Positions 10,401 to 13,400 of a stretch of 64,000 bases of DNA are shown piece after piece; the first letter of the stretch is position 1, and every line of letters starts with the position of its first letter. The stretch spans positions 51,004,788 to 51,068,787 of the forward strand of contig CM120640.1 of assembly GCA_051362555.1 (NCBI GenBank), in the 5' to 3' direction. Position numbers and translations under genes: made by a program. Source of the DNA: Lingula anatina. Lineage: Eukaryota > Animalia > Brachiopoda. The notes beneath the pieces are model-generated. The model did not search any database, was not told where the DNA came from, and saw only the letters and a list, made by a program, of their open reading frames with translations.

Positions 10401-13400
10401 TTTCCATAATCATATCCTCACAATTTTACCATTGGTAGACAGCTAAATTTGTGTCCTTATCATGCAGCTAATCCCCTTCAGCTAAGGTATGGGAATGTGA
10501 CCCTCCCTTTTATTCTCTTCCCACACTATTTACTCTAAATACCCCAATCCCTACCCAGCTCCCCTGCTGGCACTGCTGTAACGATTTTGTAATCGTGTCG
10601 CAAGCTCATGGAGAAGAGTAGTTAAGTCTCTCAGCATGTTCCGCGGCTGTAGGGCAATCCCCAGGTCTGTGGCCACTTCTTGCAGTCGCAATGCAATTAA
10701 GGGATCTACTCCACTACGAGCTGCTATCAGCTGAGTCAAGAGCACAGCTTCCGTTAGGGTTTCATGACTTTTCAGAAGAACATCTTCAATATAGGACGAC
10801 ATTGCAGAGAGAAATGTGTCCATCATGGTTGATTTTCTGTACACAGCTATGATTTCAATATCTCGCCGTGCCACATTTGCCTGTGGATGGTGGCAAAGGT
10901 ACAGGACCATCCAGTTTACTGTCTCCGTGTAGAATTGAGCATGCAGTCTGTTGAAGTAGTTGGAAATGAGATCTTCTTGCTCTACTAAAGAAACAAAGTT
11001 AATGTTTTGAGTATTCAATATGTGTTGGTTTTGCATGCCACTGTCAGCCCATTCTTTTATGTTAGCAAAACATTCTCTTACAGCCCTCATTGTGGATTCT
11101 GCAACCTGGGCTGCCCTGCTAGTTGCACCCAGCATAGTTGTGTTGATTCCTGTCTGGCGGATGGCTGTTCTAAAGTTGTCTGCCTCCTCCTCTGCATCCC
11201 TTCTCCATGTACTACGAAGCAATTCCTGCATTGTGTTTCTTACATTACCATACGCTTCATGCCAAGACACTGGTTCTTGTCTGTTAGGACTGTTAGCCTC
11301 TGTATTTTGTTGTTGGTTCGATTGTGAATAGTGATTCATGGCAGTTGACTGTGTACTAAAATATGGTGCAAACTCCTGCAAACTTTCTTGTTGCCTTAGT
11401 GCTGATTCCTGCAAACTAAATGAAAAATTTGGACACCTCAGTTGTCTATACATTTGCTGATGAGCTGCTGTCTGTGGTACACTCAACTCTCGGTGAGGAC
11501 ATGTGAGCTGCTGGAAAAGCCTTCTGTCATGTTGCTGCCTGTTATTATAGAAATGTTCTGAGTGTTGTGGGCTGTGATGCTCTGATAGTCTGTTATAATG
11601 ATACTGCTGTTGAATCAATCCAGGCTCTTCTATTCTCAACACAGCAGGATGCCGGGAAAGACGGCTTGTGTCTTGAGGTCCACTCAACTCACAACCCAAT
11701 GACAGCCAGGATTCATTAGTGTGGGCTGAAGTCTGCTGTTGTGACAAAAACTTCCTGTTAACATCACCAGTGTCTGTGTTTCTGTTATTTTCATGGCTTC
11801 CTTCTGCAAACAGGAAAGTTTCTACTGCCAGGCCATTATTGTCCCCTCTGGAAATTTGATACAATTGTTGCTCATCTCCATAATAATGATTCTGTTCATA
11901 GCTGGATATACCAGCAAAAATAGGGTTTCTATGGAAAATATGCTGCTGTTGCGTTGATTGTGTCTGCATATTAAAGAATTCCAGAGGAGGTGCATAAATG
12001 ATTTGTCGCTCCACTGGTGTAACAAACTGCTGCTGGCCGGCCATGATATTCAGAGGGTCTGGTCTATGATGACCAACCCCTGAATTATTGCAATCAAGAT
12101 AAGGCTCCATAGGGTGGTATGGAAGCATCCACAATGGTGCCTCATCCTGCATTGTATAATTCATTGTTTCTAGCCCTGATGAAATTCAGAATTATTTCTG
12201 CTTCAAGTGACTGGTGCTCCTTGTACATCTGCTCATCACCTATCACCAATTATTTCAATTATGAACAATTGCCTTTATTTTCGTATTTTCCCTCCAATAC
12301 ACTCATCATTGACTTCTGATTGGACAGGTCTCCTATGCCCCAAGGCAACAGCATCAATCTATCACTGTTGCCATAGAAACACAAAATTGTGCATTGTTGC
12401 AAGCAAAACTACTGGCTGACAATCAATAATTTAGTGACCATTGTCTCAACAATGTGACTTGCAGCAGTTTAGATTTTCAAATGCAATTCCTTTTGTTGGA
12501 TTCAAAGAACAATGAAGAAGTTTTCTGTACAACAATCAAAGAGTAGATTGTCTTTGCAGACATGCAAGTGCATTGTAATTTAGCATAAAAGATGTCAAAG
12601 TACAATAATTAACAATGTAGTCAATGATTTTTGTGGTGTCTTAAGAAAAAACAACTTCTGCAATGCTCCAAATTGTTGATCTTACATCCCTTTTGTACAG
12701 ATTGTGAACATCCTCACACTCCTTGTTATAGAGAGATACTTCCCTCTTCCCATTAGCCAGAGCCTTGCATGCTATCAGGCAATTCCAGTAGCACAGTTTT
12801 TACAGCTGTTCACAAAGACAATAGAGTATTGTTATATAGCATGACTATATGAAGGAGAATTTACTGTTCTCAGTCCTTCTCATCAGGTTCAAAGAGAGAT
12901 ATATTCAACTTATGGCTGTCTTCAGTAGTTAGGAATAATCTCTTTTGTTATCTAGATGTTTCTGTTCGGTTATCTTATGGTCATGCTCAGTACTTTGAGA
13001 ACTGGTGCTGATGTAGAAGATAGAATGGAAGAATAAGGATAAAGGGAATATTAATGCTGCAAACATTTGCACATTTTGATTTTTTTTTTTGGTCAATCAG
13101 CACTGTTTGAATTTTTGTTGAAATGAACCAATGCATGTCCCATTCTCTTAGTCTTGTCAGTAGTACCAACTCTGCTCCAAGGTTTTAAAGCTAATATACT
13201 TAACATGAATATCAACCTTCAATCACTTTTATTATTTTCTTAAAACAAAACCTGCCTATCTTTTCTGTATAATTACTCTTTGGCATGTGAAACCTCAAGG
13301 TGAAACATTGGCAAAAACAGGAAGAAAAGAAATGTGTTAAAATAAAATATGGCTCTCCAAACAAAAGGACTACTCACAATTCAAGGTCACACAGGTGAGT

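Follow-up and report, generated by a model that had tools for sequence, protein, structure and literature searches.

RNF38 is known as a nuclear RING-type ubiquitin ligase (E3) in which nothing but the RING is folded. For human RNF38, a nuclear location and three predicted isoforms have been reported (PMC7916862), RNF44 contains a lysine desert of 350 aa (PMC10665810), and a splice junction within the YEELL motif is a trait of the RNF38/RNF44 (CTL) family (PMC5764321). In this work, we analyzed a stretch of 64,000 nt of the brachiopod Lingula anatina genome (GCA_051362555.1, contig CM120640.1, 51,004,788-51,068,787), referred to as the window, whose positions serve as coordinates throughout. 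Results of our analysis indicate that a large open reading frame (ORF) in an intron of the Lingula RNF38 gene is probably a conserved alternative first exon of this gene, which would be used from an internal, sample-restricted promoter and be joined by a phase-2 splice to the exon encoding PGASRRR, to yield an E3 of about 948 aa.

The Probable Alternative Exon and Its Predicted Join to the Shared RNF38 Exons

The ORF extends from 12164 to 10551 on the minus strand, which is the strand of RNF38, and encodes 537 aa (544 aa from stop to stop). When the ORF-bearing intron was simulated 300 times with a Markov model, the longest stretch free of stops had a median of 107 and a maximum of 182 codons, and thus the length of the ORF is far beyond chance. 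Its end reads GCT GG|GTAGGG, with the TAG stop codon falling within a splice donor. When the GG is joined to the T of exon 10210, the product continues as ...SRGAG-PGASRRR, and the frame remains open through the RING to the stop codon. The predicted long isoform has 948 aa if built with the RNA-supported exons, and 951 aa (3 aa apart) if the tail of the RefSeq model P0001, introduced below, is used. According to an approximate splice weight table, the GTAGGG donor has the top score among the 86 GTs between 12164 and 10213, and this score lies inside the range of the seven other donors of RNF38.

There is no in-frame entry to the ORF from an upstream exon. An in-frame TGA is located at 12188-12186, 8 codons upstream of the ATG, and the two AGs on its 3' side (exon starts 12175 and 12169) require a phase-1 donor, whereas exon 15609-15419 ends in phase 2. 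Three weaker in-frame AGs occur deeper in the ORF (11901, 11634, and 11415), and no junction or loose read end is listed at any of them in the RNA runs. An earlier note on this DNA, made from the sequence alone (the original prediction), had described the 1.6-kb stop-free ORF, the stop within the donor, the in-frame glycine join leading to the RING, an inferred isoform of about 940 aa, the TGA and the phase mismatch, all of which were reproduced here, with a predicted length of 948 aa. The parts of the exon and its surroundings are as follows:

12165-12316 (-): transcribed leader 5' of the ATG, holding the in-frame TGA; RNA run X2 covers bin 12151-12313 at a depth of 2.29, which falls to 0.02 in the bin beyond it
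10555-12164 (-): coding part of the probable alternative first exon, 536 codons plus GG; if unspliced, it runs to the TAG at 10551 and gives 537 aa
11217-11273 (-): W-x-x-A-Y helix, aa 298-316, 19 residues, significant by a position-specific scoring matrix (PSSM)
10584-10964 (-): all-helical domain of ~130 aa, aa 401-527, delimited by profile and AlphaFold2
10549-10554 (-): phase-2 donor GTAGGG holding the TAG, best of 86 GTs, with same-phase donors in contigs L001-L006
10211-10554 (-): predicted 344-nt intron, partly covered by unspliced reads, with AATAAA at 10514-10509, 40 nt after the ORF stop
10018-10210 (-): first shared RNF38 exon (PGASRRR...), with RNA reads and a match to P0001

The identity of the host gene follows from its downstream exon, which matches 100% P0001, a 618-aa RefSeq model of Lingula anatina with the source name RNF38 isoform X2. 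Pfam zf-RING_2 scores 53 bits on P0001, and a YEELL-type motif precedes the RING-H2, as required for CTL membership. The junction 8338/7979, present in all four runs examined, splits this motif (NYE|ALL). The motif, the RING-H2 and the junction inside the motif together place the host in the CTL RING-H2 family. The first 204 of the 618 aa of P0001 come from three exons, as mapped by tblastn, and the ORF exon would take the place of all three. The original prediction had the ORF replace the exon with the nuclear localization signal and the SUMO-interacting motif. That exon, 15609-15419, which encodes both RKRRK and VIDLT, would indeed be lost from the long isoform, but so would the two coding exons upstream of it. 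By their sequence patterns, RKRRK is putatively NLS-like and VIDLT putatively SIM-like. The basic stretch RRRTRER is kept in the shared exon. The remaining exons of the gene are:

32372-32707 (-): first coding exon of the canonical form, with approximate bounds from a tblastn search with P0001 aa 1-112
22682-22765 (-): canonical coding exon 2 (approximate), tblastn of P0001 aa 113-140
15419-15609 (-): canonical exon with RKRRK and VIDLT, not in the long isoform; 15419-10210 junction with 9 reads in run X7, 4 in X9 and 8 loose-end reads in X5
7440-9815 (-): shared downstream exons 9815-9417, 9255-9082, 8802-8699, 8419-8338, 7979-7755, and 7499-stop, supported by junction reads; Pro/His-rich region, YEELL-type motif, and RING-H2

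Homologous Exons in Molluscs and Other Animals

Five of the 18 RNF38 matches, which were retrieved via an RNF38 exon and not via the ORF, are long RefSeq isoforms of molluscs (787-1447 aa), all named "uncharacterized protein": Haliotis rubra (P0003, LOC124258355 X2), Mytilus trossulus (P0009, LOC134714992 X1), Saccostrea echinata and S. cucullata (P0011, LOC133192699 X2, and P0012, LOC134273846 X2), and Mercenaria (P0018, LOC123547138 X1). In all five, a helical domain stands directly before x-PG[TA]RRR, and the RK[RK]RK motif is found in none. The residues at the junction (S, C, C, C, and S in molluscs, G in Lingula) are compatible with a phase-2 NN|T codon. The mollusc region can be aligned nearly without gaps to aa ~400-530 of the ORF at 15-23% identity. 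A profile built of the five mollusc rows, with Lingula excluded, and searched against 1,753 targets detects the ORF at aa 401-521 (51.7 bits, independent E-value 9e-15; best of 500 shuffles 8.2 bits). The ORF was originally predicted to be an orphan, which these matches and 16 further domain proteins contradict. Eight of the 16 were obtained with the C-terminal 269 aa of the ORF and eight with the profile (13 matches, five of them already known). A whole-ORF homologue search limited to proteins of 295-940 aa, a range that the 948-aa isoform exceeds, gave 0 of 5,111 candidates.

The 16 proteins are single ORFs that end 0-61 residues past the domain, and 15 of them terminate in R/W/G or read through R/W/G-Y, as expected from read-through of a phase-2 donor. 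The genomic context of such ORFs could be followed in six metagenome contigs (L001-L006, confirmed among 51 pattern matches), and a phase-2 GT occurs at or close to the ORF end in all six. In L001, L003, and L006, the stop lies inside the donor, as in Lingula. In L002, L004, and L005, the frame continues past the donor into tails unrelated in sequence and length, which indicates conservation of the donor rather than of the stop. RNF38 exons are present downstream of the domain exon in five of the six contigs. The orthologous next RNF38 exon joins in frame in L001-L004 (R-PPTTRRR), later exons resembling those of RNF38 and a RING follow downstream in L006, and L005 shows no significant RNF38 exon within its 1.3 kb of downstream DNA. 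In L002, an exon encoding SESP-RKRRK is located ~2.2 kb upstream of the ORF, which is the same arrangement as in Lingula.

The original prediction had proposed an analysis of selection in related genomes. For pairs among L001-L004, the ratio of non-synonymous to synonymous substitution rates (dN/dS) over 120 codons of the domain is 0.033 (L001/L003), 0.086 (L002/L004), and 0.05 (L001/L002, with dS saturated), and is undefined for one further pair; the linker gives 0.38 and 0.22. The domain is thus under purifying selection in these relatives. A tree of the domain clusters the five molluscs with P0026 (support 89/92, below the starred level), and this grouping fits vertical descent; Lingula and Haliotis form long branches of unsure placement.

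Two other observations concern the homologues. The region 1137-7163 of L006 contains a divergent RNF38-like gene, in which the domain exon is short (250 aa, counted from Met), with the next exon ~270 nt further on and the RING later still; its middle exons were not found in this contig. It may be a compact form with the domain exon as the main start. The N-termini of P0009, P0018, and P0026 have, as judged by eye, an extra motif in common, P-x-N-F/Y-V-P ... I/L-F/Y-x-R-A/S-G ... PG-x-F/Y-VF/YV/I-P, which occurs in bivalve-type versions of the exon.

Predicted Structure and Lysine Depletion of the Probable Alternative N-Terminus

The original prediction proposed a helical domain of about 200 aa. 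Its helical nature is borne out by structure prediction; what is conserved is a domain of ~130 aa (aa 401-527) and a separate helix (aa 298-316). The conserved residues of the domain include F404, L407, F411-Y412-x-E414, W418, H426-P427, R433 ... P507-R508. An AlphaFold2 model of aa 293-537, obtained with an alignment of 22 rows, has a mean predicted local distance difference test (pLDDT) score of 75.5 and six helices in the domain. The pLDDT of the six-helix domain is ~90; taken in blocks of ten, it is 79-97 over model residues 111-240, which cover the greater part of this domain, and drops to 49-79 in the two preceding helices; prediction from the single sequence was poor (pLDDT 40.6). The separate helix, W-x-x-A/S-Y/F, was found by pattern in 18 of 24 homologues. 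With a PSSM of 14 homologues without Lingula and leave-one-out controls, it is significant in Lingula, where none of 500 shuffles reaches its score, and not significant in the two Saccostrea oysters. A short hidden Markov model of this helix, which had no positive control, missed the Lingula motif above shuffles.

No Pfam family matched the ORF at E 1, and the domain rows gave weak single-member matches only. The whole 245-aa model searched with Foldseek gave at best E 0.17 against PDB and E 0.33 against viral structures; the query was the entire model, and the domain by itself may have a known fold. ESM Atlas returned no usable match for the ORF or P0034. No family was recognised for the domain in these searches, as had been anticipated. 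PDB sequence matches for two domain alignments (best E 1 and 0.041) were rejected, as were ABCG membrane domains (VIA wide, 245-aa model; Z 7.0, root-mean-square deviation 5.7 over 181 residues), a similarity that is within chance helical packing. The domain family as we have it consists of 25 sequences, lacks a Pfam model, and is hidden in isoforms named "uncharacterized protein".

The ORF contains 4 lysines vs. 32.4 expected (P 2e-10), and Asn, Gln, and Glu are not depleted. Lysine-free runs of the long isoform, one of 231 aa inside the ORF and one of 401 aa across the junction, are both lysine deserts, defined as at least 150 aa without K (PMC10665810), and the remaining six lysines are clustered at the RING end. 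The homologous exons are also lysine-poor (0-2.9%); the 16 single-ORF homologues together have 155 K among 12,227 residues. Lysine avoidance thus extends across the whole alternative exon.

Transcription of the Exon in Lingula

Of nine RNA runs carrying the species label, seven (X1-X5, X7, and X9) were analyzed, with 6-30% of each aligned; splice junctions were listed from at least three reads per run. Sense reads on the ORF were found in X1, X2, and X3, which are stranded poly(A) runs (~12, ~28, and ~33 reads; mean depth 0.94, 2.27, and 2.69). The depth in the same runs is 0.26, 0.16, and 0 in the upstream intron and 6.3, 3.8, and 11 on the shared exon. The ORF reads are nearly all 99% identical to the window, with no repeat-like pile-up, and in X2 they extend up to ~12316; no site with many read starts is listed. 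The ORF depth is zero in X4, X5, X7, and X9, all four of which have RNF38 junctions. The canonical 15419-10210 join is represented in X5, X7, and X9 by 8, 9, and 4 reads, and in X1-X3 by fewer than three. In X1-X3, the ORF depth of 1-3 is too low to show either splicing or its absence.

Reads were seen in other parts of the gene as well. Sense reads cover 17226-18578, in an RNF38 intron with no long ORF (depth 1.0-1.8 in X1 and 0.64 in one X9 bin), where a non-coding exon or pre-mRNA is possible. One or two read pairs of X1 and X2 lie upstream of the ORF at 13290-13620; they could not be tied to the ORF exon, and may stem from a 5' untranslated exon that belongs to the long isoform. At many fixed positions of the 3' untranslated region (5500-7400), X7 and X9 differ from the window, and X1 and X4 do not; X7 and X9 represent a divergent population that carries the same species label.

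Proposed Function and Alternative Explanations

We propose that a promoter near or above 12.3 kb, active in some samples only, would start a transcript that is spliced from 10555 to 10210 in Lingula. The canonical 204-aa N-terminus with RKRRK and VIDLT would then be swapped for a long lysine-poor linker, the W-helix, and the six-helix domain, and the resulting long isoform is predicted from its sequence to be a ubiquitin ligase. That the W-helix and the domain form a protein-binding module sending the same RING-H2 to other substrates or to another compartment seems to us reasonably plausible. Lysines may be kept out of the new arm so that the ligase avoids ubiquitinating and destroying it. A RING-less product may coexist with the long E3. 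Extended further, the locus could have been a two-way switch ever since brachiopods and molluscs parted in the Cambrian: the spliced form would combine the RING with a substrate-binding module of new fold, the unspliced form would be a RING-less decoy, and the W-helix and domain would clasp each other across a lysine-poor tether of 80-1,400 residues in a tissue-specific ubiquitin pathway. We consider this extension doubtful; if true, it would mean a ubiquitin pathway overlooked by vertebrate-centred work on RNF38.

The claim of an alternative first coding exon has gained strong support from five mollusc models, a phase-2 donor at six of six loci, purifying selection, and sense RNA in three of seven runs. 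Several observations weigh against it. The 10555-10210 junction, for which a check in RNA had originally been suggested, is absent among the junctions listed in the seven runs, and X2 has zero reads over 10195-10210. The bin 10358-10520 of the predicted intron has a depth of 1.33, 0.75, and 0.59 in X1-X3 vs. 1.2-1.5 at the 3' end of the ORF, and this closeness indicates that many molecules pass the donor unspliced. In X1, the intron stretch 17226-18578 mentioned above reaches a similar depth, X2 also has ~2 antisense reads, and all three ORF-positive runs belong to one study. The joins in molluscs are computed gene models and not observed transcripts, dN/dS was measured on the L001-L004 contigs rather than on brachiopods, and no Lingula protein with the exon was returned by the ORF, domain-profile, or RNF38-exon searches. 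The Lingula branch is long (1.91), and several otherwise conserved columns hold a deviating residue in Lingula, e.g., V420, S457, and T477. The binding role is proposed on anatomical grounds.

Some of these observations would be expected if, in Lingula, the ORF were mainly a nested stand-alone gene, whose transcripts would end at the AATAAA or retain the intron and encode a RING-less protein of 537 aa with the role of an adaptor or decoy, and if splicing to the E3 were minor or lost in this lineage. The stop inside the donor, the AATAAA at 10514, and the unspliced reads that X1, X2, and X3 each have at 10358-10520, with no junction listed and the canonical junction likewise below three reads, fit such a gene, and the paralogue locus Ark2N/Ark2C makes RING-less and RING proteins from two promoters (PMC3627648). 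However, a stop in the donor is expected anyway from the phase-2 GTRA/GTAG consensus, the donor and not the stop is kept in L002, L004, and L005, and five mollusc models splice the exon. Reads run well past the AATAAA, and at a depth of 1-3 three junction reads are not to be expected. Lysine depletion, moreover, suits attachment to a RING. We regard a mainly stand-alone gene as unlikely. A further reading is very unlikely, namely that an ancestral exon, still functional in molluscs and others, is decaying in Lingula, with the reads being unspliced pre-mRNA or leaky transcription. The long branch with its lost conserved residues, the low read depth together with intronic reads elsewhere in X1, and the exon's presence in no returned Lingula protein record would agree with decay. 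They have to be set against a 1.6-kb frame free of stops and frameshifts, where simulated introns reach at most 182 codons, against the intact state of the donor, of the two conserved parts, and of the lysine depletion, and against the depth of 2.3-2.7 on the ORF vs. 0-0.16 on the intron above it in X2 and X3.

A transposon or endogenous viral gene inserted in the intron is hardly credible. A single large intronless ORF in an intron with real repeats (14317-14531 and 16365-16912) could bring such an origin to mind, but the ORF is flanked by no terminal repeat pair and its reads do not pile up as those of the repeats do. No relative of the ORF was confirmed among 33 pattern matches in viral contigs and 29 in prokaryote genomes, and no Pfam family was found. 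The exon occupies the same intron, with the same phase, in the brachiopod, a gastropod, bivalves, and other animals. We retain the conserved alternative first exon as the most probable explanation. One gene would then likely provide molluscs, brachiopods, and other animals with a second ligase of different targeting, in some samples only.

Other Features of the Window

The repeats in the intron are a short interspersed repeat at 14317-14531, with a heavy read pile-up and many loose ends, and a fold-back element at 16365-16912, with arms of 109 nt and 52 nt that are 98-99% complementary and on which reads from many divergent copies pile up. Elsewhere, at 44570-46014, a 146-nt unit is repeated in tandem 9.9 times, with 94% matches. 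Two near-identical blocks of 17/21/38-nt tandem units, in both orientations, are located ~3.5 kb apart at 50423-50976 and 54520-55057, and look like the repeated ends of a mobile element.

The opposite strand has, at 37341-37751 (+), a coding stretch that resembles PNRC (20.3 bits with the Pfam PNRC motif, slightly short of the cut-off); it lies ~4.6 kb from where the first coding exon of canonical RNF38 is located. A second RING gene is present at 57349-60318 (-), with a C3HC4_3 RING at 57352-57681; its large exon 59635-60250 also has ~1% lysine.

Comparison with Known Systems

We know of no equivalent exon in vertebrate or insect RNF38/44. With the RNF38/RNF44 CTL family (PMC5764321) and Drosophila Murashka (PMC12383540), the Lingula host shares the YEELL-type motif and the RING-H2. 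The available parts of PMC5764321, PMC12945521, and PMC12383540 mention no such exon or domain, and the domain motifs are absent from seven text supplements of PMC5764321, whose alignment figures may be pictures. In the open-access literature, a scope outside which most subscription papers fall, we found no description of the exon for RNF38.

The Ark2 locus (Ark2N/Ark2C, the latter being RNF165; PMC3627648) resembles the arrangement proposed here in that two tandem promoters serve one RING-H2 locus and yield products with differing N-termini, one of which is tissue-restricted. It differs in that its downstream promoter drops the N-terminus and its units are separated by poly(A) sites, whereas the internal exon of Lingula would add an unrelated folded domain. 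The lysine-desert E3s San1, Slx5, RNF126, and RNF44 (PMC10665810) also have a long K-free, partly disordered arm and lysines clustered in the RING. In Lingula, by contrast, the depletion covers an alternative exon and a folded domain, and its presumed benefit is protection from self-ubiquitination.

The closest counterparts are the five mollusc isoforms. They differ from that of Lingula in being automatic predictions with no domain name, in the length of the alternative part (415-1049 aa vs. 537 aa), and in a linker that cannot be aligned; the two Saccostrea oysters differ in addition by a W-helix that is not significant, and the P0011 model is cut before the RING. While the isoform is already present in automatic mollusc annotation, the conserved exon, the domain family, and the presence of both in a brachiopod appear to be undescribed. 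Molluscs and Lingula have in common a long lysine-poor N-terminus, the helical domain, the x-PG[TA]RRR join, the omission of the RK[RK]RK exon, and the RING-H2.

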